Source: Nannocystis pusilla
GTDB lineage: Bacteria; Myxococcota_A; Polyangia; Nannocystales; Nannocystaceae
Length of the DNA: 64,000 nucleotides
Assembly (NCBI RefSeq): GCF_020073745.1
Contig: NZ_JAIRAU010000047.1
Location: 93,990 to 157,989, forward strand
Direction: 5' to 3'
Positions 7,131 through 47,923 of the stretch are shown piece by piece (positions within the stretch are counted from its first letter, which is position 1; each line of letters opens with the position of its first letter). Position numbers and translations under genes: made by a program. The notes under the pieces were generated by a model. The model was not told where the DNA came from and searched no databases. It was given only the letters and a program-made list of their open reading frames with translations.

Positions 7131-7480
7131 GCGACGACCACCTCCGCCTCACGACAAGCGGGGCCGCCACACTCTTCTGGGGCGGCCTCGCTACGGCGGC
7201 GTGGGACGCAGCGACGACCACCTCTGCCTCACGACAAGCGGGGCCGCCACACTCTTCTGGGGCGGCCTCGCGGCGGCGGCGTGGGACGCAGCGAGGGGCC
7301 CCATGCCTGACGCGCAGACGCGGGATGATTCTTCGGACATGCCCCATCGACCACTCCGCGTCGAGCATCTGGCATGGCAGGTCTCGCGTCGCGAGGGACC
7401 CGCGCCGCCGCCGCGAGGCCGCCCCTCCCCGCTCCCCACGGCCCCGCGTCCTCCCGCACGCGATCCTCGACGCCTCATTC
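7131..7480. repeat. dispersed repeat copy: 2 x 80-bp tandem units followed by a ~190-bp tail that is ~90% identical to 42483-42690
   Basis: The unit gcgacgaccacctc[ct]gcctcacgacaagcggggccgccacactcttctggggcggcctcgc is present twice. The tail contains GGACATGCCCCATCGACCACTCCGCGTCGAGCATCTGGCATGGCAGGTCTCGCG, as the 42.5 kb copy does. Confidence 0.85.
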
Positions 7481-32372: not shown

Positions 32373-33197
32373 TCAGCGCGGCAGGAGCCCGGCCGCTCGC
32401 CCGCGCGCGCGCAGCTCGGCCAGCGCCGCCGCGCCCTCGGCCCCCATGTCGCGGGAGAACTGATTGACGTAGAGGGCGATGTGCTGCCGGCACACCTCGT
32501 CGCTCAGCTCCTGCGCGTGCGCCTTGACGAACGGCCACGCCGCGGCCGGGTCGGCCTCCGCCGCCGCGATCGAGCGGGCGATCCCCTCCTCGACCGCGCG
32601 CACCTGCCAGGCCGGCAGCGAGCGGTGGGCCGCGATCACCCCGAGCGGCAGCGGCAGCCCGGTGGCCGCCTCCCACACCTCGCCGAGGTCCGCCACCTGC
32701 ACCAGCCCGTGGTCGCGGAACACGAACCGCGCCTCGTGGATCACCAGCCCCGCGTCGACCTCGCCGGCCGCGACCGCCGGCATGATGCGATCGAAGCGCA
32801 TCGGCACCACCGTCGCCGACGCCGGGGCGAAGCAGCGCAGCAGCAGGTGCGCGGTCGTGTAGGCGCCCGGGATGGCGATCTTGCGCCCCGCCAGTTCGCC
32901 GAGCTCGCCCGCCGCGCGCGCGACCACCAGCGGCCCGCAGCCGCGGCCCAGCGCCGCACCTGTCCGCAAGACCATGTAGTTGTGCTCGACCCAGAACAGC
33001 CCGTGCGCGCTCAGCTTCGTCACCGGCAGCGGCTCCTCGCCGGCCAGCGCGCGCTCGTTGAGCGCCTCGATGTCGGCCAGCCACGGCAGCGGTCGCAGCC
33101 CCGGCACGAACTCCGGCACGCGCACCAGCGCGTCGAACATCCACGTGTCGTTCGGACACGGCGAGAACCCGATCGCCAGCGGCTCGCTCGCGCTCAT
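32373..33197 (-). CDS. mqnD: 1,4-dihydroxy-6-naphthoate synthase (futalosine pathway)
   Basis: The N-terminus LAIGFSPCPNDTWMFDALV matches the MqnD signature (G[FY]SPCPNDTF). The length (274 aa) is right. Confidence 0.8.
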   Translation of the reverse strand: MSASEPLAIGFSPCPNDTWMFDALVRVPEFVPGLRPLPWLADIEALNERALAGEEPLPVTKLSAHGLFWVEHNYMVLRTGAALGRGCGPLVVARAAGELGELAGRKIAIPGAYTTAHLLLRCFAPASATVVPMRFDRIMPAVAAGEVDAGLVIHEARFVFRDHGLVQVADLGEVWEAATGLPLPLGVIAAHRSLPAWQVRAVEEGIARSIAAAEADPAAAWPFVKAHAQELSDEVCRQHIALYVNQFSRDMGAEGAAALAELRARGRAAGLLPR

Positions 33198-33198
33198 C

Positions 33199-33831
33199 TC
33201 ACATCCCCCAATTCGCGGCCTCCAGCCGCCTCAGCGCCTCTTGCACCCCGGTCACCGCGCGCGGCAGATCCCAGCCGCCCGCGGCCCGTCGTCCGGTCCG
33301 GTTGCTGACGCAGCGCAGCTGGACCCACGGCACGCCCGCGCGCCCGCACGCCCACGCCACCGCCGCGCCCTCCATCGTCTCGACCGTCGCCCCCGTCAGG
33401 GTCGCCAGCTCGCGCGAGCGCGGGTCCGTCCCGCTGCACGCGCTGACCGTCGCCCCGCGCACGATCGGCGCCGCGAGCACCCGGGCCGCCGCCGCCGAGC
33501 GCTCCGCGTCGGCGTGAAACGGCCCGTTCGACCCCAGCCCCAGCCGCGACAGCGGCAGAAACCCCTCGTCGGTCGCCACCCCTTCGTCGGCGAGCCACTC
33601 GTCGCCGACCAGGCACACGTCGCCGACGTCCAGCCTGCTCCCCGGGCCATGTCCCTCGGGATAGGCGCCGCAGACCCCGAACAGCAGCACCCACGCCGGC
33701 CGGCGCCTGTGCAGCGCCTCGCTCATGGCCACCGCCGCGGCCACCTTGCCGACGCCGAGGCGCAGCGCCGAGGGCAGCCCGCGGCCCTCGACCTCGGCGG
33801 CGCAGACGAGCAGCGGCGGGGTCACGACCAC
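33199..33831 (-). CDS. mqnB: futalosine hydrolase (MTA/SAH-nucleosidase fold)
   Basis: …VVVTPPLLVCAAEVEG…GVGKVAAAVAM…LLFGVCGAYPEG… has a PNP/UDP-phosphorylase fold. The gene is translationally coupled to mqnD (stop/ATG 2 nt apart). A GTG start was chosen at ~33825-33843. Confidence 0.65.
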   Translation of the reverse strand: MVVTPPLLVCAAEVEGRGLPSALRLGVGKVAAAVAMSEALHRRRPAWVLLFGVCGAYPEGHGPGSRLDVGDVCLVGDEWLADEGVATDEGFLPLSRLGLGSNGPFHADAERSAAAARVLAAPIVRGATVSACSGTDPRSRELATLTGATVETMEGAAVAWACGRAGVPWVQLRCVSNRTGRRAAGGWDLPRAVTGVQEALRRLEAANWGM

Positions 33832-34140: not shown

Positions 34141-34818
34141 ATGACACAAACCAACACGGCAGCATTCGTCCGCGTCGAAGGCATCCTGCTCGCCCGCGGC
34201 GTGCTCAGCGCGGCGGCCTACCTGGCCGGCAACGCCAAGAAGTTCGGCGAGCGGGCGCTGCGCCTCGGCCTCGTCGGTCTGGCCGCCCCGGTCCACCGCC
34301 TGCTCGGCCAGACCGACCGCGCGCTGGCCCACCGTCTGGCCCACCTCGCCATCCGCGGCATGAGCCGCGACCGCGTCGAGGTCCTGTGCGAGGAGTACGC
34401 CGAGGATGTCCTGAAGGACACCATCCTCGATCAGGGCCTCGAGCTGCTCAAGCGGCTGCAGGCCGAGGGGCGGCGGGTCGTGCTGCTGTCCGACAGCATC
34501 GAGCCGATCATGAAGCCGCTCGCGCGGCACCTCAAGCACTACGACGAGCTCGCCTACAACCACATCGAGTTCGAGGACGACGAGGCCACCGGCAGGCTGC
34601 TCGATCCGGTCATCGGCTCCAACGTCGGCGGCCGCTGGCTCGACGACTACGCCGCGGCGCACAAGCTCGAGCTCGCCCGCTGCTCCGCCTACGGCGCCCA
34701 CGGGCCCGACATGCTGCTGCTCTCGCGCGTCGGCAAGCCGTGCGCCGTCAACCCCGACTTCGTCCTGCGCCGCAGCGCCAAGGACGCCGACTGGCCGATC
34801 ATCGACTATCGCGACTGA
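34141..34818 (+). CDS. HAD-IB family hydrolase (SerB-like phosphatase)
   Basis: AFVRVEGIL…(DxD-type start)…VVLLSDSIEP…GSNVGGRW… match HAD-IB architecture. Confidence 0.65.
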   Translation: MTQTNTAAFVRVEGILLARGVLSAAAYLAGNAKKFGERALRLGLVGLAAPVHRLLGQTDRALAHRLAHLAIRGMSRDRVEVLCEEYAEDVLKDTILDQGLELLKRLQAEGRRVVLLSDSIEPIMKPLARHLKHYDELAYNHIEFEDDEATGRLLDPVIGSNVGGRWLDDYAAAHKLELARCSAYGAHGPDMLLLSRVGKPCAVNPDFVLRRSAKDADWPIIDYRD

Positions 34819-34846: not shown

Positions 34847-36532
34847 GTGAACACGCCGCTCTCGATCAAGCACTGCTACGCCGGCCGCCACGTCTTGCTG
34901 ACCGGCGTCACCGGCTTCCTCGGCAAGGTGTGGCTGGCGATGGTGCTGCAGCACGTGCCCGAGATCGGCAAGATCTACGTGCTCACCCGCAAGAAGGCGC
35001 TGCGCCCGGCGGCCGACCGGTTCGAGCGCCAGGTCCAGACCTCGCCGTGCTTCCGCCCGCTGCACGAGAAGTACGGCGCCGACATGAGCCGCTTCGTCAG
35101 CGAGCGGGTCGAGGTCGTCTCCGGCGACGTCTCGCTGCCCGACATGGGCGTCGAGGATCCCGAGGTGCTCGCCCGCCTGCGCCGCGACATCGACCTCGTG
35201 GTCAACTGCGCCGGCCTCGTCGACTTCGACCCCGACCTGCGCGACGCCATGACGACCAACGTCGACGGCGCCCGCAACGCCGCCAACTTCGTCGCCGCCT
35301 GCGACAAGGCCGTCCTCCTCCACATCTCGACCTGCTACGTCACCGGCAAGAAGAACGGCAAGATCGCCGAGGACATCCGCCCCGACCTCGCGCCCAGCGG
35401 CGACGCCTTCGACGTCGAGGCCGAGAGCGCCGACATCCAGGCCAGCATCGACGCCATCCTCGCCGACCACGAGTCGGCCGAGATGGAGCGCCGCGCCCAC
35501 GACGACGCGATCAAGCAGATCCGGGACAAGGGCGGCGACGAGAACAACGCGATGCTGGTGCGCAACACGGCGCGCCGGATCAAGCGCAACCTGCTCAAGG
35601 ACGCGATGGTCGCCGAGGGCCAGCGCCGCGCCGCCCGCTGGGGCTTCACCAACATCTACACCTTCACCAAGAACATGGCCGAGGCGTGGATCGCCCGCCG
35701 CCTCGATCCTGGTCGCTGGGCCATGTTCCGCCCGGCCATCGTCGAGAGCTCGATGAGCTACCCGTTCCCCGGGTGGAACCAGGGCTTCAACACCTGCGGC
35801 CCGCTGAGCTACGCGCTCGGCAGCTGGTTCCGCCACCTCCCGTGCAAGAAGGGCAACCCCTTCGACATCATCCCCGTCGACTACGTCTGCCGCGGCATGA
35901 CCGTCGCCGGCGCCGCCCTCATGCGGGGCGAGCACGCGCCCGTGTACCAGTGCGGCAGCTCCGACCTCAACCTGCTGACCATCGACCGCGCCGTCGAGCT
36001 GGTCGCGCTGGCCCACCGCAAGCACCTGCGCACCCGCGGCGACACCACCCTCGACCGCGTCCTCAAGTCGCGCTGGGACGCCATCGCCGTCACGCCCGAC
36101 CACCCGATGCGGATCGAGAACGTGCGCAAGATGACCGAGTCGGTCGACGAGTGGCTGCGCGACCCGCCGAAGGACTGGCCGGAGTTCATCCGCCGCCGGC
36201 TCACCGACTTCGCCGAGCACACCGAGGACGCCCTCGAGGCGATCGACAAGATCGAGCGCATGTGCGAGCTGTACATGCCGTTCATCCACGACAACCACTT
36301 CGCGTTCTACACGCGCAACCTGCTGCGCCACCCCGTCGTCGAGCCCGAGTGGGACTGCGACCCGCGCAGCATCGACTGGCGCCACTACTGGATCGACGTG
36401 CACATCCCCGGGCTGCGCAAGTGGTGCTTCCCGCTGTTCGAGAACAAGACCCCCGAGAGCTACGCCCCGCGCCACCCCTTCCGCCTGCGCTCGCCCGAGG
36501 CCGCGCCCGCGCCCCACGCCGAGGTCGTCTGA
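34847..36532 (+). CDS. fatty acyl-CoA reductase (FAR; NAD_binding_4 + C-terminal sterile domain)
   Basis: The Rossmann motif [13 protein letters not shown]…YVLTR, …STCYVTG…, and the YTFTKNMAE active site (Y…K) are present. A ~170-aa C-terminal domain is typical of FARs. Confidence 0.85.
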
Positions 36533-36536
36533 CACC

Positions 36537-37682
36537 ATGGCCATCTTCCTCACCGGAGCCACCGGATACATCGGCTCGTACGTCGCCGCCGGCCTGCTCG
36601 ACGAGCACCCGAACGAGCGGCTCGCCCTGCTCGTGCGCGCCAAGGATCCCGCCGAGGCCGAGCAGCGGCTGTGGAAGTCCATGCAGCTGCACATGGACTT
36701 CCCGCGCTTCCTCGACCTCGTCCGCACCCGCTGCGACCTCTACCTCGGCGACCTGACCTTCCCCGGCCTCGGCCTCGAGGCCGGCGCGCGCGAGAAGCTG
36801 GTCCGCACCATGGACTCGGTCATCCACTGCGCCGCGTCGCTCAACCGCAAGTCGTCGAAGTCCTGCTTCAACGTCAACCTGCGCGGCACCCTGAGCGTCC
36901 TCAAGCTCGCGCGCGACGCCCAGGACCAGCACGGCCTGCGCCGCTTCACCGACATCAGCACGGTCGCGGTCTCCGGCGAGCGCAAGAGCGAGGTCGTCAC
37001 CGAGGACAACACCGTCGACTGGGACAAGTCCGACTACGACCCGTACGCGCGGACCAAGAAGTTCTGCGAGCACATGCTGCACGAGCTCCTGCCCGACGTC
37101 CCGGGGCTCGTGCTGCGGCCCTCGATCGTCCTCGGCGACAGCCGCTTCCCCGAGACCACCCAGTTCGACATGGTGCGGGCGTTCGTCATGCTCGCCAAGC
37201 TGCCGGTCTTGCCGTTCCACCCCGACTGGCGGCTCGACATCGTCCCGGTCGACTACGTCGCCAAGGCGATCGTCACCCTGCACCAGCGCGACAAGCTGGC
37301 GCACGACGCCTACAACCTCAGCTCCGGCACCGCCTCGCTCACCTACCGCCAGGTCGTCGACGCCATGCGGCGCGCCGGCCACCCGGTCAAGCACCGCTTC
37401 GTCCCCGGCCTCAACGGCGCGTTCAACCGCGTGGTCGAGACCGCCTCCAACACCCCGCGCAACTGGGGCGTCTCGCTCCCGGCCTCGCTGCTCAAGGTGT
37501 TCCTGCCCTACCTCACCTTCGACACCGTGTTCGACAACCGCCGGGTCGTCGACGCCCTCGGCGAGGCGCCCGCCTCGTTCGATCGCTACGCCTACGGGCT
37601 CTACCGCTTCGCGGTCGACCACAACTTCAGCTACCCGTACAAGCCCTGGCCCGGCGGCGCGCAGGTGCGGCAGGTGGCCTAG
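36537..37682 (+). CDS. SDR-family thioester/acyl reductase (NAD-dependent epimerase/dehydratase fold)
   Basis: [13 protein letters not shown] Rossmann motif, …HCAASLN…, and YARTKKFCE (YxxxK) are present. The gene is 4 nt downstream of the FAR gene. Confidence 0.8.
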
Positions 37683-37692
37683 CCCTTCGAAC

Positions 37693-39174
37693 ATGTCCAA
37701 GAGCGCACCCGTCAAGAAGACCACCAGCAAGATCTGGGACAAGGTCAAGGAGGTCGTCGACCCCGACCGCGCCCTCCAGGCCACCGTCGCCGCCGCGATC
37801 GAGGGCGTCGCCGTGCGCCACGTGCTCGGCATGTCGCCGGAGACGTGGGAGCCGGGCAAGCCGCTCAAGCTGCTGCTGGCCGGCTACGTCGGCACGCGCA
37901 ACACCGGCGCCGACGTCCGCGTCGAGGAGATGATCCGCCAGCTGCGCCACGTCGTCGGCGACGACGACCTCGAGCTGACGATCATGACCGTCGATCCCAA
38001 GCTGACGCGCGGCTACTTCCGCGCCGTCCACCAGATCGAGCTGCCGGCGGTGTTCCCCAAGTTCATCGCCCAGGAGTGCCCCAAGCACCACGGCGTCATC
38101 GCCTGCGAGGGCTCGATGTTCAAGTCGAAGTTCTCGAGCGCGCTGACCTGCTTCATGGCCGGCTCGCTCGGCCTCGCCAACGCCGAGAACAAGATCAGCG
38201 TCGGCTACGGCGCCGAGGCCGGCAGCATGACCCCGGGGCTGCGCGACTTCGTGCGCGACGCCTGCAAGAAGTCGCTGGTCATCTGCCGCAACGAGCCCTC
38301 GCGTCAGGTCCTGGGCGAGCTCGGGATCCGCACCACCTCCGGGGCCGACACCGCCTGGACCTTCGACCCGGCGCCGCTGTCGCGCGGCGCTCAGCTGCTG
38401 CGCGACGCCGGCTGGGACGGCCGCCAGAAGGTCCTCGTCGTCTGCCCGATCAACCCGTTCTGGTGGCCGGTCAAGCCCGACCTGCTCAAGTACGCCGCCT
38501 ACAAGCTCGGCGGCCAGTACAAGCACGAGCACTACAGCGCCTTCTACTTCCACCACCACAGCGAGGCGGCGGAGAAGAAGTACAACAACTACATCCAGGC
38601 CCTGGCCGACGGCGTCAACGCCTTCGCGCAGGAGCGCGAGTTCTTCACCATCCTCGTCGGCATGGAGCAGCTCGACCGCCACGCCTGCGAGGACCTGCTG
38701 CCGCGGCTCGACCGCGGCGGGTCGCTGTTCGTCAGCGACGAGCACGACATGTTCGACCTCGTCAGCGTGCTGCGCAATTGCAGCATGATGATCAGCTCTC
38801 GCTTCCACGCGATCGTCACCTCGATGCCGGGCCTCGTGCCCTCGGCCGGCGTCACGATGGACGAGCGGATCCGCAACCTCATGAACGATCGCGGCCACCC
38901 GGACATGTTCTTCGAGGTCGACGAGGACGACCTCGGCGAGAAGCTGCTGCACACCCTGCGCCGGCTGTGGCGCGACGCCGACGCCATCAGCGCCGACATC
39001 GCCCGCGCCGTCCCGGCCCAGCTCAAGCTCATGGGCCAGATGGGCATCGACTTCATGGACGAGGTCGTGCGCGTCTACCCGCAGTTCCCGCGGCGCGACC
39101 TCCCGCGCACCTGGGACGCCCACCTGCCGCCGCTGCCGCCGGGCGTGCAGCGCCTGCTGGAGCGCCACGCATGA
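37693..39174 (+). CDS. polysaccharide pyruvyl transferase family protein (PF04230-like)
   Basis: …LLAGYVGTRNTGADVRVEEMIRQL… and the C-terminal …NCSMMISSRFHAIVTSM… motif are characteristic of CsaB/WcaK-type pyruvyl transferases. Confidence 0.7.
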   Translation: MSKSAPVKKTTSKIWDKVKEVVDPDRALQATVAAAIEGVAVRHVLGMSPETWEPGKPLKLLLAGYVGTRNTGADVRVEEMIRQLRHVVGDDDLELTIMTVDPKLTRGYFRAVHQIELPAVFPKFIAQECPKHHGVIACEGSMFKSKFSSALTCFMAGSLGLANAENKISVGYGAEAGSMTPGLRDFVRDACKKSLVICRNEPSRQVLGELGIRTTSGADTAWTFDPAPLSRGAQLLRDAGWDGRQKVLVVCPINPFWWPVKPDLLKYAAYKLGGQYKHEHYSAFYFHHHSEAAEKKYNNYIQALADGVNAFAQEREFFTILVGMEQLDRHACEDLLPRLDRGGSLFVSDEHDMFDLVSVLRNCSMMISSRFHAIVTSMPGLVPSAGVTMDERIRNLMNDRGHPDMFFEVDEDDLGEKLLHTLRRLWRDADAISADIARAVPAQLKLMGQMGIDFMDEVVRVYPQFPRRDLPRTWDAHLPPLPPGVQRLLERHA

Positions 39175-40805
39175 GCGACAACTTCCTCGACGTCATCCAC
39201 GCCGCGGTCCAGAAGACCCGCGAGGAGCACCTGCTCATCGAGCTCCACGGCAAGGAGCGGCGCCCGACCTCGGCCGCGCAGCTGCTGCACCTCGTCGCCC
39301 ACGCGCGCGGCTCCCTCCGCCGCGCCGGCGTCAAGCCCGGCGACCGCGTCGCCCTGCTCGCCCCCAACTCCGCGCGGTGGGTCGCGGCGGACCTCTCGAT
39401 CCTGTTCGAAGGTGCGATCGTCGTCCCGCTCTACAGCCGCCAGGACCCGCGCGAGCTGGCCGTCATGGTCAAGGACTGCAGCCCGGTGCTCGTCATCGCC
39501 GACGGCCCCGAGCTCGCCGCCGGCCTGCGCGGCGCCTGGCCCGAGCACTGCCCGATCGAGGACCTGCGCGACGTCCTCCGCGGCGACCCGGTGCACGAGC
39601 CGCCGCGCCCGGTCGCGCCCGCCGATCCGGTCACCATCATCTACACCTCCGGCACCAGCGGCGAGCCCAAGGGCGTCGTCCTCACCCGCGCCAACGTCGA
39701 CTACATGCTGCCGCAGACCCGCAGCAGCGTCGACCGGATCACCGGCGGGCAGCGGGCCGACAAGGTGTTCCACTTCCTGCCGTTCTGCTTCGCCGGCTCG
39801 CGCGTCATGTTGTGGACGCAGCTGTACCGCGGCAACCCGCTGCTGCTGTCGACCGACCTGCAGAACCTCGTCGCCGAGATGGGCGCCGCCGATCCGCACT
39901 ATTACCTCAACGTCCCCGCCGTGCTCGAGCGGATCAAGAACGGCGTCGGCAAGAAGATCGCGGAGCGCGGCGGCGTCGCCCTCGCCCTCTACCAGCGCGG
40001 CCAGGCCGCCTTCCGCCGCCGGCGCGAGGGCAAAGCTGGCCTTGGGGACAGGCTCACCCTCGCCCTCGCCAAGAAGCTCGTCTTCAGCAAGATCAAGCAG
40101 CAGGTCGGCCCCAGCCTCGAGTTCCTGATCTGCGGCTCGGCCGCGCTCGCCGAAGAGACCCAGTGGTGGTTCGAGCTGGTCGGCGTGCAGGTCTACCAGG
40201 TCTACGGCCTGACCGAGACCACCGCCATCGTCACCATGGACACCCCGGGCGGCGTGCGCCCCGGCTACGTCGGCCACGCCATCGGCGGCTGCGAGCTCAA
40301 GCTCAGCGACGAGGGCGAGCTGCTGGTCCGCGGCCCTGGCATCTTCGCCGGCTACTGGGGGCGCGAGCAGGCCACCGCCGAGGCCATCCGCGACGGCTGG
40401 TTCCACACCGGCGACCAGTGCGAGCTCGACCACACCGGCAACCTGCGGATCATCGGCCGCGTCAAGAACATCCTCGTCCCCGAGTCGGGCCACAACATCG
40501 CCCCCGAGCCGATCGAGGAGAAGTTCATGACCGCCTGTCCGCGCGCCGAGCAGTGCATGCTCATCGGCCACGCGCGCCCCTTCCTCGGCATCATCGTCCC
40601 CGGCGACGTCCCGAAGGAGGACATCGACGCCGCGCTCGAGGTCGTCAACGCCAGCGTCCCGCACTACAAGAAGATCCGCGCCTTCATCCGCGTCGCCGAC
40701 CCGTTCACCATCGAGAACGGCCTCCTCACCGCCAACCAGAAGCTGCGGCGCCGCGCCGTCGAGCAGCGCTACCGCGCCGAGATCGACAGGGCTTACGCGT
40801 CATGA
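39171..40805 (+). CDS. long-chain fatty acid-CoA ligase (AMP-dependent synthetase)
   Basis: The AMP-binding motif IIYTSGTSGEPKGV, YGLTET, and the GWFHTGDQCELDHTGNLRIIGRVKN hinge are present. The ATG overlaps the upstream stop (ATGA). Confidence 0.85.
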   Translation: MSDNFLDVIHAAVQKTREEHLLIELHGKERRPTSAAQLLHLVAHARGSLRRAGVKPGDRVALLAPNSARWVAADLSILFEGAIVVPLYSRQDPRELAVMVKDCSPVLVIADGPELAAGLRGAWPEHCPIEDLRDVLRGDPVHEPPRPVAPADPVTIIYTSGTSGEPKGVVLTRANVDYMLPQTRSSVDRITGGQRADKVFHFLPFCFAGSRVMLWTQLYRGNPLLLSTDLQNLVAEMGAADPHYYLNVPAVLERIKNGVGKKIAERGGVALALYQRGQAAFRRRREGKAGLGDRLTLALAKKLVFSKIKQQVGPSLEFLICGSAALAEETQWWFELVGVQVYQVYGLTETTAIVTMDTPGGVRPGYVGHAIGGCELKLSDEGELLVRGPGIFAGYWGREQATAEAIRDGWFHTGDQCELDHTGNLRIIGRVKNILVPESGHNIAPEPIEEKFMTACPRAEQCMLIGHARPFLGIIVPGDVPKEDIDAALEVVNASVPHYKKIRAFIRVADPFTIENGLLTANQKLRRRAVEQRYRAEIDRAYAS

Positions 40806-41575
40806 TCGACTGGACCTACGACAGCGGCGTCTACGAGCTCACCCTCGCCACGCCGCCCTGCAACGAGATCGGCACGGCGATGCTCGCCGATCTGCGCCGC
40901 TTCATCGACCAGATCGATCGCGACGCCCACACCCTCATCCTCCGCAGCGGCCTGCGCCAGGGCTTCTGCGCCGGCGCCGACCTGCGCGAGCTCTACCGCG
41001 GCCTGAGCGACGTCCCGGCCGAGCAGCACGCCCCGCTGCTGCGCAAGTTCATCGACGAGATCCACGGCGTCATGGACGACCTCGACATGCTGCCGCTGAC
41101 CACCGTCGGCGTCGTCCACGGCGTCTGCTTCGGCGGCGGCTTCGAGCTCGCGCTCACCTGCGACGTCCTCATCGCCGAGAAGTCGGCCCGCTTCTGCTTC
41201 CCCGAGCTGCGCCTCGGCATCATCCCCGGCTTCGGCGGCATCCCTCGTCTGCGCCGCGACGTCGGCAACGGCCTCATCCGCGACCTCCTGCTCAGCGGCC
41301 GCAGCATCAACGCCAAGAAGGCCCAGGCCGCCGGCCTCGTCAGCCAGGTCGTCGCCGGCGGCGAGGGCATCACCGCCGCGCGCGCCCTCGCGGCCCAGAC
41401 CGCCAAGTTCGATCCGACGGCGCGCAAGGCCGCCAAGGCCTTCATCAAGAAGCTCCCGACCGACGAGCTCCTCGCCGAGCGCGAGCTGTTCGTCCGCCTC
41501 GCCCAGGGACCCGCGCTGCTGGCCGCCCTCAAGCGCTTCGTCGAATCCACCGACCTGCGGCCCTACCTGCCATGA
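40802..41575 (+). CDS. enoyl-CoA hydratase/isomerase (crotonase) family
   Basis: The oxyanion-hole region GFCAGADLRE and …VVHGVCFGGGFELALTCD… are present. It is translationally coupled (ATGA) to the ligase. Confidence 0.85.
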   Translation: MIDWTYDSGVYELTLATPPCNEIGTAMLADLRRFIDQIDRDAHTLILRSGLRQGFCAGADLRELYRGLSDVPAEQHAPLLRKFIDEIHGVMDDLDMLPLTTVGVVHGVCFGGGFELALTCDVLIAEKSARFCFPELRLGIIPGFGGIPRLRRDVGNGLIRDLLLSGRSINAKKAQAAGLVSQVVAGGEGITAARALAAQTAKFDPTARKAAKAFIKKLPTDELLAERELFVRLAQGPALLAALKRFVESTDLRPYLP

Positions 41576-41580
41576 GCCTC

Positions 41581-41880
41581 CTTGTTCCACATCGGCGCGG
41601 AGCCTCGAGCTGCGGCTTGTCTCCGCGCAGTCGCGGGGCTTCGAGCTGCGGCTCGTCTCTTGTTCCGCGCCGGCTTGGGGTCTCGAGCTGCTCCTCTCTT
41701 GTTCCGCGCGGGCTTGGGGTCGCGAGCTGCAGCTCCTCTCTTGTTCCGCGCCGGCTTGGGGTCTCGAGCTGCGGCTCCTCTCTTGTTCCGCGCCGGCTTG
41801 GGGTCTCGAGCTGCTCATCTCTTGTTCCGCGCCGGCTTGGGGTCTCGAGCTGCGGCTCGCCTCTTGTTCCGCGCCAGCGC
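41581..41880. repeat. tandem repeat, ~42-bp unit x ~7 (tcttgttccgcgccggcttggggtctcgagctgcggctcctc)
   Basis: Direct tandem copies with >90% identity are visible. All six frames are open but no protein-like composition is seen. Confidence 0.85.
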
Positions 41881-41884
41881 GGGG

Positions 41885-42060
41885 CCACGGAGACCCGGGT
41901 GGGTCGGCCCGGGCGCGGCGGAGCGGGTCCCTCGCGACGCGAGACCTGCCATGCCAGGTGCTCGCCGGCGATATCTTGCTCTCCGCTTTCCGAAGGTTCT
42001 CTCGCCGTCTGCGCGCCAGGCATGGGGCCCCTCGCTGCGTCCCACTCCGCCGCGCCCGGG
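41885..42060. repeat. inverted copy (left arm) of the dispersed-repeat tail. It forms a ~170-bp inverted repeat with 42483-42690.
   Basis: The reverse complement of cgggtccctcgcgacgcgagacctgccatgccag and of aggcatggggcccctcgctgcgtcccactccgccgcg matches 42500-42680. Confidence 0.75.
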
Positions 42061-42150
42061 CCGACCCAGACGATCGTCGAGCGGCCCCGCTCATCACCGC
42101 TCGCCTGTCCCTTCGGTCCTGCTTCCAGGAACCTGTCTGAACGAGCAGGA

Positions 42151-42490
42151 GCGACCATCTCCGCCTCACGACAAGCGGGACCCGCCACGACCTCTGCTCT
42201 CTCGCTCGACGCGACCATCTCCGCCTCACGACAAGCGGGGCCCGCCACGCCCTCCGTTCCCTCGCTCGACGCGACCATCTCCGCCTCCCGACAAGCGGGG
42301 CCCACCACCGCCTTCGCTCTCTCGTTTGAAGCGACCGCCTCCGCCTCACGACAAGCGGGGCCCACCACCGCCTCCGCTCTCTCGTTTCAAGCGACCACCT
42401 CCGCCTCACGACAAGCGGGGCCCCCTACAACCTCCGCTCTCTCGCTCGAAGCGATCATCTCCCCCTCACGACAAGCGGGGCCCACCACAA
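42151..42490. repeat. tandem repeat, 60-bp unit x ~5.7 (gcgaccatctccgcctcacgacaagcggggcccgccacgccctccgctctctcgctcgac)
   Basis: Unit starts recur every 60 bp (42151, 42211, 42271, 42331, 42391, 42451). The same unit family occurs at 7131-7290. Confidence 0.9.
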
Positions 42491-42690
42491 TCTTCTGGGG
42501 CGGCCTCGCGGCGGCGGAGTGGGACGCAGCGAGGGGCCCCATGCCTCACGCGCAGACGCGGGATCAATCATCGGACATGCCCCATCGGCCGTCCGCGTCG
42601 AGCATGTGGCATGGCAGGTCTCGCGTCGCGAGGGACCCGCTCCGCCGCCGCGAGGCCGCCCCTCCCCGCTCCCCGCGGCCCCGCGTCTCC
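42483..42690. repeat. dispersed-repeat tail (right arm), ~90% identical to 7290-7480. It contains GGACATGCCCCATCGG and GTCGAGCATGTGGCATGGCAGGTCTCGCG.
   Basis: Directly alignable with the 7.3 kb copy. A partial copy also occurs at 5630-5705. Confidence 0.85.
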
Positions 42691-42850
42691 GCGCACGCGA
42701 CTCCCGATGCCTCTCGCCCGAGCCGCTCACCACGGCCCCGCGTCCCCGCGCACGCGAGCCGCTCCCCACGGCCCCGCGTCCCCGCGCACGCGATTCCCGA
42801 TGCCTCTCGCCTGAGCTGCTCCCTACGGCCCCGGGTCTCCCCACACGGCG
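42640..42850. repeat. short tandem repeat block (~26-58-bp units: acggccccgcgtccccgcgcacgcga…tcccgatgcctctcgcc)
   Basis: Four copies of cggccccgcgtc[ct]ccgcgcacgcga and two of ttcccgatgcctctcgcc[ct]gagc are present. Confidence 0.75.
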
Positions 42851-42904
42851 CCTGATCTCCGCGTCCCGACAGCAGAAGCCCGCAGAACACTGAGAGCACA
42901 TCCG

Positions 42905-43138
42905 ATGAGCGACACTCTCGACACACTCATCCGTCTCGCCGCCAAGCGCTTCGGCGCCGACCCGGCCAAGCTCCGCGCCGAGGACGACCTGTTCGAGCGC
43001 CTGGGCATCGACAGTTTTCAGGCCGTCGAGCTCATCTCGGACGTCGAGGACGAGTTCGACGTCGAGCTGCCCGACTACGAGCTTCAGGCGATCAAGACCT
43101 TCGCTGCTCTGGCGCAGAAGATCGACGCGAGGCGCTGA
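42905..43138 (+). CDS. acyl carrier protein
   Basis: The 77-aa protein has LGIDSFQAVELISDVEDEF around the phosphopantetheine-attachment Ser (DSF/DSL motif). Confidence 0.85.
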   Translation: MSDTLDTLIRLAAKRFGADPAKLRAEDDLFERLGIDSFQAVELISDVEDEFDVELPDYELQAIKTFAALAQKIDARR

Positions 43139-44853
43139 TGCTCGACCTGGGAAAGCTGTCCTGCCTGGGCGAGGCGCTGCGTGACGCCACCATCACGTAC
43201 AAGAGCCGCGTCGCGCTGATCGAGGCCGATCGGCACCGCGAGAATTCGCGCCACACCTTCGCCGAGCTGCGGACGCAGGCCGAGCGGTTCGGGGCTGGTT
43301 TGCAGGTCCACGGGTTCGGGCCTGGCGATCGTTGTGCGATCGTCATGCAGAACCAGTCGAAGTGGCTCATCGGCGCCACCGGGGCCTTGTGGGCCGGCGC
43401 CGTCCTCGTCCCCATCGACTACAAGTTGACCGCTCCCGAGCAGCACGCCTTGCTCGCGCACTGTCGGCCGCGGGTCGTGCTCGCCGAGTGGCCGGCGTGG
43501 GACAAGCTGCAGCGCGAGGATCCCTCGATCTTCGAGCGCACCCTCGTCATCGTCACCGAGGCGCCGGAGGGCGCCAACGTCGGTCGGGCGCTGCGCTGGG
43601 AGGACCTGCCCCAGGGGTCAGGTTTCACCTTTCACGCGCGGGCGCGCGAGGACGTCGCCTGCATCGTCTACTCCTCGGGCACCGGCGGGGCGGCCAAGGG
43701 CTGTCAGCTGTCGCACCGCAACTATTTGGCGCAGGCCGAGACGCTCGGCAACCTCTACCCGCTGAGCGAGGGTGATCGTTACTTCTCGATCCTCCCGACC
43801 AACCACGCCATCGACTTCATGTGCGGCTTTTTGCTCGCGCTGATGATGGGCGGCGCCGTCGTCCACCAGCGGACCTTGAGGCCGGCCTATCTGGCAAGCA
43901 CCATGAAGAGATACGGCATCACGCACATGGCGCTGGTGCCGACGATCCTCAAGACCCTCGAGAAGAAGATCAAGGACAAGATCGCCGAGCTGCCGAGTTG
44001 GCAGCGGCTCGTGCTCGACGGCCTCATGGACATCAACGAGTACGCCACGCGGCAGGCGCCGAACCACGGGCTGAGCAAGACCTTGCTGGCCCCGATCCAC
44101 GAGTACTTCGGCGGCAAGCTGCGGCTCATGTTCTGCGGCGGCGCCTTCGTCGACCGGCAGAGCGCCGAGTACTTCAACCGGCTCGGGTTGCCGGTCGTCA
44201 TCGGCTACGGCCTCACCGAGGCCGGCACCGTCCTCACCGTCAACGACCTCAAGCCGTTCCGCGGCGACAGCGTCGGCAAGGCGGTCGAGGGCACCGAGAT
44301 CGAGCTGCGGGACGTCAACGAGAGCGGCGTCGGCGAGGTGTGGGTGCGCGGCCCCACCGTCATGTTGGGTTATCTGGACGCGCCCGAGCTGACGCGGGAA
44401 GCGCTCGTCGATGGTTGGCTGCGGACCGGCGACCTCGGCACGATGGACGCTGCCGGGCACCTCAAGCTGCTCGGTCGCAGCAAGAACATGATCGTCACGG
44501 AGGGCGGCAAGAACGTCTATCCGGAGGACATCGAGGCCGCCTTCGGCGACATCGACGACTGCGAGGAGTTCTGCGTGTTCGCGGCCAACTACATCTGGCC
44601 GACCGGCAAGATGACCGACGAGCAGCTGATCGTCGTCGTGCGGCCCAAGGCCGGGCTCGACGAGGCCGCGCGGGCCGACGTCATCGACGCCTTCCGCAAG
44701 CGCAACCGCCAGCTCGCCGACTACAAGCGGATCTCCGCCTACGTCTTGTGGGAGCGCGAGTTCCCGCGCACTGCCTCGCAGAAGATCAAGCGCGACCCTC
44801 TCGCCCGCGAGCTCAAGCCGCTCGGCCGCGCCCTCGCCCTGCGCGACCTGTAA
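43138..44853 (+). CDS. AMP-dependent synthetase/ligase (acyl-ACP synthetase or fatty-acyl-AMP ligase candidate), translationally coupled to the ACP
   Basis: IVYSSGTGGAAKG, YGLTEAG, and GWLRTGDLGTMDAAGHLKLLGRSKN are present. The ATG overlaps the ACP stop (TGATG). Confidence 0.85.
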   Translation: MLDLGKLSCLGEALRDATITYKSRVALIEADRHRENSRHTFAELRTQAERFGAGLQVHGFGPGDRCAIVMQNQSKWLIGATGALWAGAVLVPIDYKLTAPEQHALLAHCRPRVVLAEWPAWDKLQREDPSIFERTLVIVTEAPEGANVGRALRWEDLPQGSGFTFHARAREDVACIVYSSGTGGAAKGCQLSHRNYLAQAETLGNLYPLSEGDRYFSILPTNHAIDFMCGFLLALMMGGAVVHQRTLRPAYLASTMKRYGITHMALVPTILKTLEKKIKDKIAELPSWQRLVLDGLMDINEYATRQAPNHGLSKTLLAPIHEYFGGKLRLMFCGGAFVDRQSAEYFNRLGLPVVIGYGLTEAGTVLTVNDLKPFRGDSVGKAVEGTEIELRDVNESGVGEVWVRGPTVMLGYLDAPELTREALVDGWLRTGDLGTMDAAGHLKLLGRSKNMIVTEGGKNVYPEDIEAAFGDIDDCEEFCVFAANYIWPTGKMTDEQLIVVVRPKAGLDEAARADVIDAFRKRNRQLADYKRISAYVLWEREFPRTASQKIKRDPLARELKPLGRALALRDL

Positions 44854-44883
44854 TCGGCCTCCGGGGCCTGATAGGCTGCACCC

Positions 44884-45792
44884 ATGCACGATCCGGCCGC
44901 ACTCCTCGCAGTCGTCAATCCTGCCGCCGGCGGCGGCGTGTGCGGCAAGCGGGCCCCGGCGGCCGTCGAGCGGCTGCGGCAGTCGGGCGTCAAGGTCGAC
45001 GTCGTCGAGACCAGGGCGCCCGGCCAGGCCACCGACGTCGCGCGCGAGGCGGTCGCCGCCGGGCGGCGCCACTTCATCGCCGTCGGCGGCGACGGCACCA
45101 GCTACGAGCTCATCAACGGCATCTTCTCCGGCGCCTTGCCCGCGGGTGAGCGGCCCTCGCTCGGCATGCTGCCTCTCGGGACAGGCAACTCCTTCCTGCG
45201 GGACTTCACCGACCAGGGCGCCGAGTACGCGATCGAGGCCATCATCGCCGGCAAGACGCGCCCGTGCGACCTCATCCGCTGCACCCACACGCGCGGCGCC
45301 CTGCACTTCATCAACATCTTCAGCATCGGCTTCGTCGCCGACGTCGGGGCCACCCGCAACCGCAGCTTCTCGAGCCTGGGCGAGTTCGGCTACACCCTGA
45401 GCACCGTGCTGCGGGTGGCCGCGCTGCGGCCGTACACCTTCCCGATGCAGATCGATGGCCAGCCCGAGGATCGGGAGCCGCTGACCTTCCTCTCGTTCAA
45501 CAACAGCCGCTTCACCGGCGGCAAGATGATGATGGCGCCCGACGCCAACACGCGCGACGGTCTGCTCGACATCATCCGCGTCGGCCGCCTGGGCCGCGTC
45601 GGGCTCCTGCGCACCTTCCCGAAGATCTTCAGCGGCACCCACGTGCAGCACCCGGCCGTGCGCTGCTACCAGGCGCCTGGCCTCGACCTCCGCCTCGCCG
45701 GCGACATCGACGTGATGGTCGACGGCGAGATGATCAAGATCAACCCGCGGCGGCTGGAGGTCGTCCCGGCCGCGCTCGATGTCCGGACGTGA
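44884..45792 (+). CDS. lipid kinase of the DAGK_cat family (YegS/sphingosine-kinase-like)
   Basis: AVVNPAAGGG, …FIAVGGDGTSYELINGI…, and LPLGTGNSF are the diagnostic diacylglycerol-kinase catalytic-domain motifs. Confidence 0.8.
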   Translation: MHDPAALLAVVNPAAGGGVCGKRAPAAVERLRQSGVKVDVVETRAPGQATDVAREAVAAGRRHFIAVGGDGTSYELINGIFSGALPAGERPSLGMLPLGTGNSFLRDFTDQGAEYAIEAIIAGKTRPCDLIRCTHTRGALHFINIFSIGFVADVGATRNRSFSSLGEFGYTLSTVLRVAALRPYTFPMQIDGQPEDREPLTFLSFNNSRFTGGKMMMAPDANTRDGLLDIIRVGRLGRVGLLRTFPKIFSGTHVQHPAVRCYQAPGLDLRLAGDIDVMVDGEMIKINPRRLEVVPAALDVRT

Positions 45793-45797
45793 TCGTC

Positions 45798-46592
45798 ATG
45801 GTGTTCAAGTTCATCAAGAAGGCAGCTCAGGTCGTCTACTCCGCCGTCGTCTGGACGGTCTCGTTCGCGTGGATGGGCGCCGTCGCCGTCACGTGGGCCG
45901 CCGTGTCCACCGTCGTGCCCTCGCGCAAGACCCACAACTACATCGGCGGCCCCGGCATGGGTGCCGTCCTCAAGATCACGCTGAGCCGCGTCGAGATCAT
46001 CTACGACCCCGAATTCGACCCCGAGCGACGCGGCGTGTTCATGCAGAATCACGTCAACCTGCTCGACGCGCACGCCGCCTGCGCCTCGATCCCGCACGCC
46101 TTCTGCGGGCTGATGAACGCCTGGCAGTTCAAGATCCCGATGTACGGCTGGATCATGAAGCTCGCCGACGGCATCCCGGTGCCGAACGGCTCCAACCGCT
46201 ACCGTGCGATCGCCGAGGCCGCGCGCGACCGGGCCAAGAAGGGCATCTCGATCCTCGCCTTCCCCGAGGCTCACCGCACGCTCGACGGCAAGGTCGCCGA
46301 GTTCAAGCGCGGCGTGTTCTGGATGGCCCGGATCGCCGGCCTGCCGGTCATCCCGCTGGCCACGCACGGCATGTACGATCTGATGCAGAAGGGCTCGTAC
46401 TTGCTGACGCCGACGAAGATCACGATCTACGTCGGCGCGCCGATCGAGACCCGGGGCCTGTCCGACGCCGAGCTCGCGCAGGTCATGGAGCGGACCCACA
46501 AGATCATCGCCGACTTCGCCGAGCGCGGCATCGTGCCCGGGCGCACGGCCCCGATCCCCTCCGACGTGACGCCGATCGCCTCCGGCGCGTGA
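45798..46592 (+). CDS. 1-acyl-sn-glycerol-3-phosphate acyltransferase (LPLAT/AGPAT family), membrane-anchored
   Basis: An N-terminal transmembrane helix, motif I FMQNHVNLLDAH (HX4D) and motif III ILAFPEAHRT (FPEGTR-like) are present. It is 6 nt downstream of the kinase. Confidence 0.8.
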   Translation: MVFKFIKKAAQVVYSAVVWTVSFAWMGAVAVTWAAVSTVVPSRKTHNYIGGPGMGAVLKITLSRVEIIYDPEFDPERRGVFMQNHVNLLDAHAACASIPHAFCGLMNAWQFKIPMYGWIMKLADGIPVPNGSNRYRAIAEAARDRAKKGISILAFPEAHRTLDGKVAEFKRGVFWMARIAGLPVIPLATHGMYDLMQKGSYLLTPTKITIYVGAPIETRGLSDAELAQVMERTHKIIADFAERGIVPGRTAPIPSDVTPIASGA

Positions 46593-46906: not shown

Positions 46907-47923
46907 ATGACTCGTGGGATCTGCCTTTTGCTCATCGGTTCGGTGGTGGCGTGTGATGTCGTGGGGAGCGCCGACGGAACAGCGATTTCGGCGCGCAACG
47001 ACGCCGACAACGGCATCGCGTTGAATACCGCGCAGCTCAACGGCTGGAACCTCAACGGCATGCGCGTGAACGGCACCGCCCTCAACGGCATGCGCGTGAA
47101 CGGGTGGAACCTCAACGGGTGGAACCTCAACGGCATCAGCCTGGTCGGCAGCAGCTTCTCTGCCACGCATGACGTCGACGGCACACCCGTGCCCGTCAGC
47201 GGCGACGATCTGATCGGTTCGGTGCTCACGCTCGAGGGCGGCGACACCACCTTCGTCCTGCGCTTCGACGACATCTATCTCGACCCGGCCGACCCGAACG
47301 GCGACGTGTGGTTCTACGACATCTCGGTCCAGGACAACGAGACCAGCCAGTGGTCGAGCCTCTGCAACGACCACAACGGTCAGCCGACCCAGGCGATCGC
47401 GATCGCCAACTGGTGGAACCCCACCACCGGCGCCCGGGTCGACGATCCCACGGCGGTGACGTTCGCCTGCCGCGACGCCGTGCTGGCCAAGTGTGTCGAG
47501 TGGGGCTACCGCCCGTGGGCGACCGTCGGCGGCGTCGGGCTCGCCGATCACCACCAGGCGTGCACGCGACTGGCCCGCGCCGACTACTGCGGCGACGGCA
47601 CCCCGCACACCTTCACCGGCACGCCGATCGACGTGTTCGACGCGCTCACTCCGGCGATCCAGAGCCCGGCCACCCTCGATCGTCAGAGCTGGGGCATCGA
47701 GGCCGAGTGGGGCCCGAACGGCGCCGTGTGCATCGGCGACCAGCTGCGCCTCAAGATGTACGACGACAACGGCGTGCCCTACGACTTCCCGGGCTGCTTC
47801 GACGCCCTCGACGACATCAGCGGCTGCGGCGACTTCGACAGCAGCCGCGGCGCCCTCCTCGCCGACCGCTACTGCGACGTGTGGGAGAGCGACCCGGGCG
47901 CCTGCGCGGCCGCCACGTACTAA
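46907..47923 (+). CDS. secreted lipoprotein with N-terminal pentapeptide-type repeats ([10 protein letters not shown] x7) and a C-terminal Cys-rich ADYCGDG domain
   Basis: A lipobox (LLIGSVVAC) is present. The repeat is [35 protein letters not shown]. The C-terminus contains [13 protein letters not shown]. Confidence 0.6.

Follow-up and report, generated by a model that had tools for sequence, protein, structure and literature searches.

A conserved ten-gene operon of Nannocystis pusilla that probably builds a fatty-alcohol-derived lipid, and a tentative phosphoenolpyruvate-dependent route to ether lipids

Layout and conservation of the operon

This study concerns an operon of ten co-oriented genes that probably builds a fatty-alcohol-derived lipid, found in a 64,000-nucleotide stretch of the Nannocystis pusilla genome (RefSeq assembly GCF_020073745.1, contig NZ_JAIRAU010000047.1, positions 93,990 to 157,989; hereafter the window, in whose own numbering the locus is described). 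The G+C content of the window is ~70%, and real genes were told from the many spurious open reading frames (ORFs) by a frame plot of GC content at third codon positions (GC3). A preliminary description of this DNA had placed nine co-oriented genes between positions 34847 and 46592, and all nine are indeed present there; they lie on the + strand, have a strong coding signal by GC3 and carry the domains that had been named, as judged by profile searches. Overlooked in that description were a tenth co-oriented gene (g0), which encodes a HAD-like protein, lies 28 nt upstream of the first of the nine and is a member of the conserved cluster, and a 1.33-kb non-coding insertion that interrupts the row between the crotonase and acyl carrier protein (ACP) genes. 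The locus comprises:

34141..34818, + strand: g0, HAD-IB-like protein (PF12710, E 3.5e-17); ATG 34141 is the probable start, and the longest ORF runs from TTG 34084
34847..36532, + strand: g1, FAR, eukaryote-type fatty acyl-CoA/ACP reductase (NAD_binding_4, PF07993, E 1.8e-49; weak Sterile domain)
36537..37682, + strand: g2, TR, stand-alone thioester reductase, an R-domain-like short-chain dehydrogenase/reductase (SDR) of 381 aa (NAD_binding_4, E 1.3e-44; also PF01370)
37693..39174, + strand: g3, PyrT, PS_pyruv_trans-like protein (PF04230) of putative GT-B fold (44.7 bits vs a cutoff of 25.3)
39171..40805, + strand: g4, ligase 1 (ACS1), AMP-ligase of the acyl-CoA-synthetase type (AMP-binding_C_3)
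40802..41575, + strand: g5, crotonase-fold enoyl-thioester hydratase (ECH; ECH_1, E 6e-37)
41576..42904, no strand: non-coding insertion within the operon, 1329 nt, with tandem and inverted repeats
42905..43138, + strand: g6, ACP (PP-binding, E 1.6e-13)
43138..44853, + strand: g7, ligase 2 (ACS2), AMP-ligase (AMP-binding, E 6e-71)
44884..45792, + strand: g8, soluble lipid kinase of the YegS/DgkB family (DAGK_cat + YegS_C; TIGR00147, 150.2 bits)
45789..46592, + strand: g9, AGPAT/PlsC-family acyltransferase (AT; PF01553, E 1.2e-14; 54.7 bits vs a cutoff of 23)

The intergenic gaps from g0 to g9 measure 28, 4, 10, -4, -4, 1329, -1, 30 and -4 nt, so that five of the nine junctions (g0 counted in) show an overlap of 1-4 nt or a gap of 4 nt. 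Specifically, the g4 start overlaps the g3 stop in an ATGA, and the g7 start shares 1 nt with the ACP stop. The earlier characterization of the genes as mostly translationally coupled was right in view of the junctions of -4, -4, -1, -4 and 4 nt. Starts are overcalled in mechanical ORF lists of this locus, as in the ORFs at 39377-41575 and 45264-46592.

In terms of conservation, when a PyrT alignment was run against a single genome for each species, a relative of this protein was found in at least 589 species genomes. The ten window proteins were compared by tblastn with 83 fetched loci, and the order HAD-like, FAR, TR, PyrT, ligase 1, ECH, ACP, ligase 2, kinase, AT was found again in dozens of genomes, which belong to three phyla: Myxococcota (Nannocystales, Polyangiales, Sandaracinaceae and Bradymonadia), Bdellovibrionota (two metagenome-assembled genomes, MAGs) and Acidobacteriota (~40 MAGs of Terriglobia, Acidiferrales and Blastocatellia). 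In soil Terriglobales the cluster reaches a very high abundance, and its culturable hosts include Nannocystis and Paraliomyxa. The identity of PyrT itself is 95% with its counterparts in Nannocystis pusilla Na p29 and Nannocystis sp. RBIL2, 65-70% within the Myxococcota and ~51% between phyla. Because the same ten genes recur in the same order in dozens of genomes of three phyla, their arrangement is far beyond chance and constitutes a conserved operon, which bears out across Myxococcota, Bdellovibrionota and Acidobacteriota the co-conservation in relatives on which the preliminary description had made its assignment depend.

Within the Acidobacteriota, gene presence was counted only for loci with enough flank. 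The HAD-like gene is found in 28/29 of these loci, FAR and TR in 29/29 each, ligase 1, ECH, ACP and ligase 2 in 25/25 each, the kinase in 24/25 and AT in 9/25. The position of the HAD-like gene upstream of FAR is likewise kept in 28 of 29 acidobacterial loci and 28 of 34 other loci. Every cluster seen whole holds FAR, PyrT, crotonase, ACP and ligase 2; TR and ligase 1 are almost always kept, and AGPAT is the least conserved member. The Myxococcota cluster sometimes occurs in two pieces, HAD-FAR-TR-PyrT and (ligase 1)-ECH-ACP-ligase 2-kinase-(AT), and ligase 1 is missing from seven Myxococcota loci. Ligase 2 adjoins ACP in all relatives. Beyond the cluster, orthologous loci have unrelated flanks that vary between lineages, and no genes for beta-oxidation, serine palmitoyltransferase or AGPS (the FAD-linked alkyl-DHAP synthase) were found in these flanks.

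The encoded enzymes and their fusions

The most distinctive member of the operon is PyrT, which passes the PF04230 threshold; orthologues and the fusion proteins described below match this family too. Against the equivalog models of the family its scores are modest: the CsaB model gives a full-length match (E 9e-20) of 71 bits vs a cutoff of 213, and the WcaK model gives 20 bits vs a cutoff of 399. No sequence match to PyrT was found among solved structures. The subfamily is compact and divergent, with 272 members at E<=1e-30 and 1487 at E<=1e-3 among 1.84 billion representatives. Nonetheless, R199, R370-x-H372 and R392 of PyrT are invariant in 84/84 sequences, and an hhalign comparison with E. 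coli WcaK places CRN on lRe, SRFH on tRLH and R392 on a Lys 20 residues past the His. The residues that bind phosphoenolpyruvate (PEP) in CsaB have been identified by mutagenesis as R148, R306/H308 and K328 (PMC10435577). With the CsaB numbering mapped by spacing, PyrT appears to keep the PEP-binding positions of pyruvyl transferases.

Taken together, these features mark PyrT as a predicted divergent member of the PEP-dependent pyruvyl-transferase superfamily. It shares with CsaB, Pvg1p and WcaK its Pfam membership and the PEP-binding pattern of an Arg, an Arg-x-His and a basic residue at +20, and it may have a GT-B-like fold of two Rossmann domains as they do. It differs from them in falling below the equivalog cutoffs, in lacking a sequence match to solved structures, in its putative extra N- and C-terminal helices and in a genomic context that is purely lipid. 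Indeed, no glycosyltransferase or sugar-nucleotide gene accompanies PyrT in Pfam-annotated loci, except for a GT87-family gene in a rearranged Paraliomyxa locus. Because the conserved cluster holds no glycosyl genes, genomic context argues against a saccharide acceptor.

Gene fusions provide a second line of evidence on which members of the operon belong together. In all 28 acidobacterial loci that have both genes, the HAD-like protein and FAR form one polypeptide of ~780-830 aa (HAD + NAD_binding_4 + Sterile), as exemplified by L050 (6379-8874), L077 (5411-7756) and L089 (5656-8073), with 25 other acidobacterial loci besides. In locus L090 (5754-8813), the N-terminal domain of FAR and a 'Sterile + PyrT' protein share one reading frame with a single TAA between them, and ECH, ACP and ligase 2 follow. 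In L091 (553-3456), a 967-aa protein consists of PyrT fused to a ligase-1-type enzyme, and downstream lie a TR homologue, a KR-type SDR and a 1093-aa A-R protein. Both L090 and L091 are metagenomic contigs from source organisms of ~40-43% G+C. At the level of sequence, the HAD-FAR, FAR-PyrT and PyrT-ligase 1 fusions appear to tie FAR, PyrT and ligase 1 together. The preliminary description had taken PyrT and the second reductase as signs of a modified head group; a role as peripheral decorators is at odds with the presence of both in the conserved core and with the fusion of PyrT elsewhere to FAR and to ligase 1.

Our frame test also flagged two further junctions. An apparent PyrT-ligase 1 fusion in L019 proved to be an artefact of the test, the junction being a normal ATGA overlap. 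The L005 junction, flagged as an ECH-ACP fusion, has the overlap of ECH stop and ACP start that other relatives show.

With respect to the remaining enzymes, motif I of the HAD-like protein reads F-(F/V)-R-(V/A)-E-G where DxDx(T/V) is expected, and an Arg takes the place of the Asp nucleophile in the window protein and in all 37 aligned orthologues. Because of this replacement, the motif excludes a canonical phosphatase and marks the protein as a predicted pseudo-phosphatase conserved across three phyla, which is probably an accessory domain of FAR. The closest solved relative of FAR is a fatty acyl-CoA reductase (7eoz, E 3e-34). Its Sterile domain scores 21.5 bits in the window protein, which is below the cutoff, and 39-40 bits in acidobacterial orthologues, which is above it; the GxxGxxG and YxxxK motifs are invariant across orthologues. 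TR reaches 142 bits with TIGR01746, below the cutoff of 213; its nearest solved structures are the R domains of MxaA, of polyketide synthases (PKS) and nonribosomal peptide synthetases (NRPS) and of carboxylic acid reductases (CAR), and the window protein carries GxxGxxG and Y170-x3-K174.

The best NCBIfam match of ligase 1 is FadD11, far below its cutoff, and ligase 2 is presumed to be the adenylating enzyme that loads ACP, in which the phosphopantetheine Ser37 is invariant (54/54 sequences). Both catalytic Glu residues of the crotonase, E115 and E135, are likewise invariant (58/58), and the nearest solved structures are short-chain hydratases, including methylglutaconyl-CoA hydratase and (acryloyl-CoA/)3-hydroxypropionyl-CoA dehydratase. 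The lipid kinase exceeds the TIGR00147 cutoff (150.2 vs 118.65 bits) and has the GGDG motif in 46/46 sequences. In AGPAT, the HX4D motif is represented by H88 (18/18 sequences) and D93 (17/18), and a hydrophobic segment at residues 15-34 forms an N-terminal anchor.

A repeat insertion and the surroundings of the operon

The insertion at 41576-42904 shows no coding signal in any frame by GC3, and an ORF of 427 aa at 41572-42855 was rejected as spurious, having neither a Pfam match nor GC3 signal. The element is instead built of repeats, the tandem arrays being those reported by TRF:

41641-41875: 42-bp x5.7 tandem array
41878-42087 and 42477-42685: imperfect inverted arms of ~200 nt
42150-42488: 60-bp x5.7 tandem array
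42666-42837: 36/93-bp array

The insertion is flanked by a 6-bp direct duplication, ATGAGC, at 41572-41577 and 42905-42910. Neither N. pusilla Na p29 nor Nannocystis sp. RBIL2 has the insertion, and in both the crotonase stop overlaps the ACP start (…CCATGAGCACC…); the insertion site coincides exactly with this overlap. The ATGAGC pair has the look of a target-site duplication, one by which the ACP start codon was restored.

At 7135-7476 the window contains a related copy, with 84% identity over 344 nt to 42392-42713 and with an 80-bp x2.1 tandem repeat of its own. This copy is intergenic, situated between a trypsin-like gene (6182-7087) and a periplasmic-binding-protein gene (7575-9119, - strand). 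As such a copy exists, the insertion is a member of a dispersed repeat family of this genome, and the family is possibly mobile in the manner of miniature inverted-repeat transposable elements (MITE-like). No Rfam family matches the insertion, and when metagenomes were scanned with the 60-bp core, the only matches were chance ones of 23 nt within unrelated terminator hairpins. The 42-bp units form weak terminator-like hairpins, and a sigma-70 scan of the insertion found no promoter. We propose that the insertion uncoupled the two halves of the operon in this strain.

Several neighbouring genes complete the picture of the window. Divergent from the cluster, on the - strand at 32373-33831, are futalosine-pathway-like genes (VitK2_biosynth/MqnA-like and a PNP_UDP_1 nucleosidase). 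The same pair also stands upstream of the cluster in the relative L002 and not in L001, and its position next to the cluster is probably a coincidence. A 611-aa protein with a lysyl-oxidase domain (PF01186, E 3e-17) is encoded at 28460-30295, an ADYC-domain protein directly downstream of the cluster at 46907-47923, and a ricin-B-lectin protein at 53401-54954, the coding sequence of which contains 138/279-bp tandem repeats (53490-54178).

Possible routes to a fatty-alcohol-derived lipid

Overall, we regard it as likely that the locus is a vertically conserved operon building a fatty-alcohol-derived lipid, and the gene content and order in three phyla support the view of the preliminary description that this is a co-conserved biosynthetic cluster for such a product. 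Within that frame we favor, tentatively and with low confidence, an explanation in which an alkyl-glycerol ether lipid is made by a PEP-dependent route; all of its chemical steps are inferred. In this scheme, a ligase would activate a fatty acid and FAR would reduce the thioester to a fatty alcohol. PyrT would then move the enolpyruvyl group of PEP onto the alcohol oxygen with release of phosphate, making the ether bond in the form of an O-alkyl enolpyruvate (2-alkoxyacrylate). A ligase, with CoA or ACP, would thioesterify the new carboxylate, and the crotonase would add water at the beta carbon (C3) to give a 2-O-alkyl-glyceroyl thioester, which TR could reduce at C1 to 2-O-alkyl-glyceraldehyde or 2-O-alkylglycerol. 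Finally, the lipid kinase would phosphorylate 2-O-alkylglycerol, and AGPAT, or a housekeeping PlsC where AGPAT is absent, would acylate it to a phosphatidic-acid analogue. The scheme does not allot ligase 1 and ligase 2 to particular steps.

Several features of the operon are consistent with the PEP-dependent route. Catalytic motifs are intact in FAR, TR, ECH, ACP, kinase, AT and PyrT, and the enzyme tally would fit the route stepwise, with two ligases, two thioester reductases, and one each of PEP transferase, hydratase, kinase and acyltransferase. The crotonase, with both Glu residues, appears to be a true hydratase that has no acyl-CoA dehydrogenase in the cluster to provide its enoyl substrate, and an enolpyruvyl ether would supply one. 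We also count its kinship to acryloyl-CoA/3-hydroxypropionyl-CoA dehydratase in favor of the route. The parts that seem dispensable, ligase 1 and AGPAT, may be those replaceable by housekeeping FadD and PlsC, respectively.

In mechanism only, the proposed step resembles that of MurA and MurB, in which C2 of PEP is attacked by the oxygen of an alcohol and the double bond of the resulting enolpyruvyl ether is then processed. The fold of MurA (EPSP-synthase-like) is unrelated, and the vinyl group is there reduced by a flavoenzyme, as opposed to the crotonase hydration after thioesterification proposed here. Relative to CsaB, Pvg1p and WcaK, the postulated acceptor is a fatty alcohol and the product an enol ether in place of a sugar ketal. 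Ligase 2, ACP and TR can be viewed as a split A-T-R module akin to CAR and NRPS-like A-T-R enzymes, although they are three separate proteins and the TR gene, flanked by those for FAR and PyrT, belongs to the operon's other half.

A number of points weigh against the PEP-dependent route. Thioester-reductase domains usually use carrier-bound substrates and crotonases CoA esters, so that it is hard to see how the CoA and ACP branches would exchange intermediates. The FAR-PyrT and PyrT-ligase fusions come from one metagenomic contig each, and the minimal variant L090 is without a separate TR, which hints at other or more varied products. In L089, a long-read MAG, an O-methyltransferase and a SnoaL protein take the place of kinase and AT. 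In clusters of the Blastocatellia type, a FabH/KAS III gene separates crotonase from ACP (L045, 14335-15333; L077, 15281-16282; L089, 14182-15183), and DUF4199, DUF4185 and SnoaL are also present; this gene content suggests lineage-specific variation of the product, and the variable cluster tails may reflect other products. The top 120 matches to Terriglobales and Blastocatellales orthologue queries all bear MAG or metagenome names, with no cultured Acidobacterium carrying the cluster among them. Known myxobacterial ether lipids are 1-O-alkyl (PMC9131029), whereas the route predicts 2-O-alkyl, and the only chemistry shown for PF04230 enzymes is the formation of ketals on diols, specifically sugar ketals (PMC10435577, PMC8615578). 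The route is a sequence-based proposal, which we hold as a possibility that is well short of probable.

The alternative that survives best, although we consider it rather doubtful, is an unfused pathway of the ElbD type, in which ligase 2 and ACP would load a fatty acid, FAR or TR would reduce it, AGPAT and the kinase would handle the glycerol backbone, and a 1-O-alkyl ether would arise by elb-like chemistry, with PyrT and crotonase as accessory or head-group-modifying enzymes. In the elbABCDE operon of M. xanthus, ElbD combines FAR-like, ligase, ACP and AGPAT domains, ElbB is a HAD protein, and ElbA and ElbE are NAD-SDR proteins (PMC9131029, PMC13012113). All of these known elb domain types (HAD, NAD-SDR, FAR-like, ligase, ACP and AGPAT) occur at our locus, the HAD (ElbB) and epimerase/dehydratase-type (ElbE) companions being represented by g0, which lacks the catalytic Asp, and by g2 (PF01370/PF07993). 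The two systems also share a phylum, a presumed end point in a fatty-alcohol-derived glycerolipid, the absence of AGPS and an ether-forming step that is unexplained in both. Moreover, split ElbD variants have been reported in Poribacteria and Acidobacteria (bioRxiv 10.64898/2026.06.23.733905). According to a pan-genome study, the elb (VEPE/AEPE/TG-1) cluster is not conserved in Nannocystis, Sorangium and Polyangium and is absent in Sandaracinus and Enhygromyxa (PMC12224551); as Nannocystis is thus reported without a conserved canonical elb cluster, the present locus could fill the same role. Among the scanned window genes, none has the multidomain make-up of ElbD.

The preliminary description had equated the ligase, ACP, reductase and AGPAT genes with the domain set of ElbD. 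All four types are indeed present in unfused form, but the likeness is one of domain content only. The least conserved of the four, AGPAT, occurs in just 9 of 25 acidobacterial loci, and the HAD-like protein is catalytically dead, having lost its nucleophile. PyrT and crotonase, which ElbD lacks, are part of the invariant core, being in every whole cluster, and PyrT is fused in places to FAR or to ligase 1. Neither these two nor the kinase are among the elb domain types given by reviews, which assign ElbC to no family (PMC9131029, PMC13012113). The present operon further departs from elb in its separate genes, its two ligases and two reductases, its added PEP-transferase-like enzyme, crotonase and lipid kinase, and its distribution over Nannocystales, Sandaracinaceae, Bradymonadia, Bdellovibrionota and Acidobacteriota.

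Two other established systems were considered and ruled out by gene content and synteny. With the FAR-GNPAT-AGPS plasmanyl pathway of eukaryotes and myxobacteria (MXAN_1676-1674, FARAT), the cluster shares a eukaryote-type FAR with a C-terminal Sterile domain and an AGPAT-family acyltransferase. In contrast to that pathway, there is no AGPS in the cluster or among the scanned window genes, and FAR is fused not to an acyltransferase but to the HAD-like protein (Acidobacteriota) or to PyrT (L090). With the Caulobacter locus for sphingolipids and ceramide phosphoglycerate, it shares the pairing of ACP with an acyl-ACP synthetase and a DAGK_cat-family kinase (the ceramide kinase CpgB), but it has no serine palmitoyltransferase, ceramide synthase or CpgA/C/D-type gene. 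The statement of the preliminary description that serine palmitoyltransferase is missing holds more widely, as no aminotransferase-class gene was seen in the cluster, the scanned window genes or the Pfam-annotated orthologous loci. A further parallel, a pyruvyl-transferase-like gene in the Caulobacter Cpg pathway, was dropped, as no such gene is mentioned in PMC11324152.

Also unlikely, more so than an unfused ElbD-type pathway, is that PyrT pyruvylates or carboxyvinylates a lipid head group or diol (an alkanediol, a monoalkyl- or monoacylglycerol, or a glycolipid) to give an anionic pyruvate-ketal lipid, the other enzymes making the hydrophobic part. Demonstrated chemistry in the family is limited to ketal formation on a diol (PMC10435577, PMC8615578), and the PEP-binding residues are kept. 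This would, however, leave the true hydratase, the second ligase and the second reductase without a role, the conserved cluster contains no sugar or diol-forming genes, and the PyrT subfamily (1487 representatives at E<=1e-3; no solved-structure match) is far from the classical polysaccharide pyruvyl transferases.

We attach a similarly low likelihood to a specialized metabolite outside the membrane, such as a surfactant, signal or storage lipid (for example, an alkyl glycerate/lactate ether or a wax-like ester) with lineage-specific tailoring, rather than a bulk membrane lipid. The variation of the tail would suit such a product, with kinase and AT in most clusters, methyltransferase and SnoaL in L089, and FabH/DUF4199/DUF4185 in Blastocatellia, as would an A-T-R logic like NRPS-like reductive release. 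The strong conservation of PyrT, the kept gene order and the abundance in soil Terriglobales nonetheless fit a core physiological lipid better, and kinase and AGPAT point to phospholipid assembly.

Lastly, a catabolic or fatty-acid-recycling operon of beta-oxidation-related activation and hydration, which the two acyl-CoA-ligase-like genes, the crotonase and an acyl-CoA dehydrogenase gene elsewhere in the window (3790-5598) might have suggested, is effectively refuted by synteny, as that dehydrogenase gene is the only one in the window, lies at a distance of 29 kb and lacks synteny in relatives, no orthologous cluster contains a dehydrogenase or thiolase (a FabH-type ketosynthase occurs in some Blastocatellia), and the content of FAR, reductase, ACP, kinase, AGPAT and PyrT is anabolic. 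The preliminary description had itself raised the prospect of a beta-oxidation or polyketide operon; the cluster is neither, and we found no gene for acyl-CoA dehydrogenase, 3-hydroxyacyl-CoA dehydrogenase or thiolase in the cluster or in orthologous loci. Its suggestion that the arrangement is new also stands: the searched literature contains no description of the cluster, and no paper in it connects ether lipids or FAR with a pyruvyl transferase. We class the locus with bacterial fatty-alcohol/ether-lipid clusters, among which it is a new variant, and not with the elb family.

To our knowledge, the synthesis of alkyl ether lipids in aerobic bacteria is largely unsolved, and the chemistry of ElbD is unexplained. 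The PEP-dependent route, were it to operate, could amount to an ether-lipid pathway independent of both AGPS and Ger and needing no O2, in which PyrT would join a fatty alcohol to C2 of PEP and glycerol would be built on the alkyl chain to give an sn-2-type alkyl glycerol. Given how widely the operon occurs among soil Terriglobia and Blastocatellia, it is conceivable, if somewhat improbable on present evidence, that it is the missing ether-forming machinery of aerobic Acidobacteria. These bacteria are suspected producers of the brGDGTs (branched tetraethers of the glycerol dialkyl glycerol type) used as palaeoclimate biomarkers; their ether-forming enzyme is not known, they are without Ger, the only proven bacterial alkyl-ether enzyme, and elb is known only from subdivision 4 (PMC13159169, PMC11868695).

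Taken together, our analysis defines a tightly conserved, uncharacterized operon in which a eukaryote-type FAR is paired with a PEP-transferase-like enzyme, and its culturable hosts, Nannocystis and Paraliomyxa, make it testable. If the PEP-dependent route is true, it would be a categorically new way to form ether bonds and would bear on the origin of ether-bound iso-diabolic acid lipids and brGDGTs. Even if this mechanism is wrong, the product of the operon is probably a significant, overlooked bacterial lipid.

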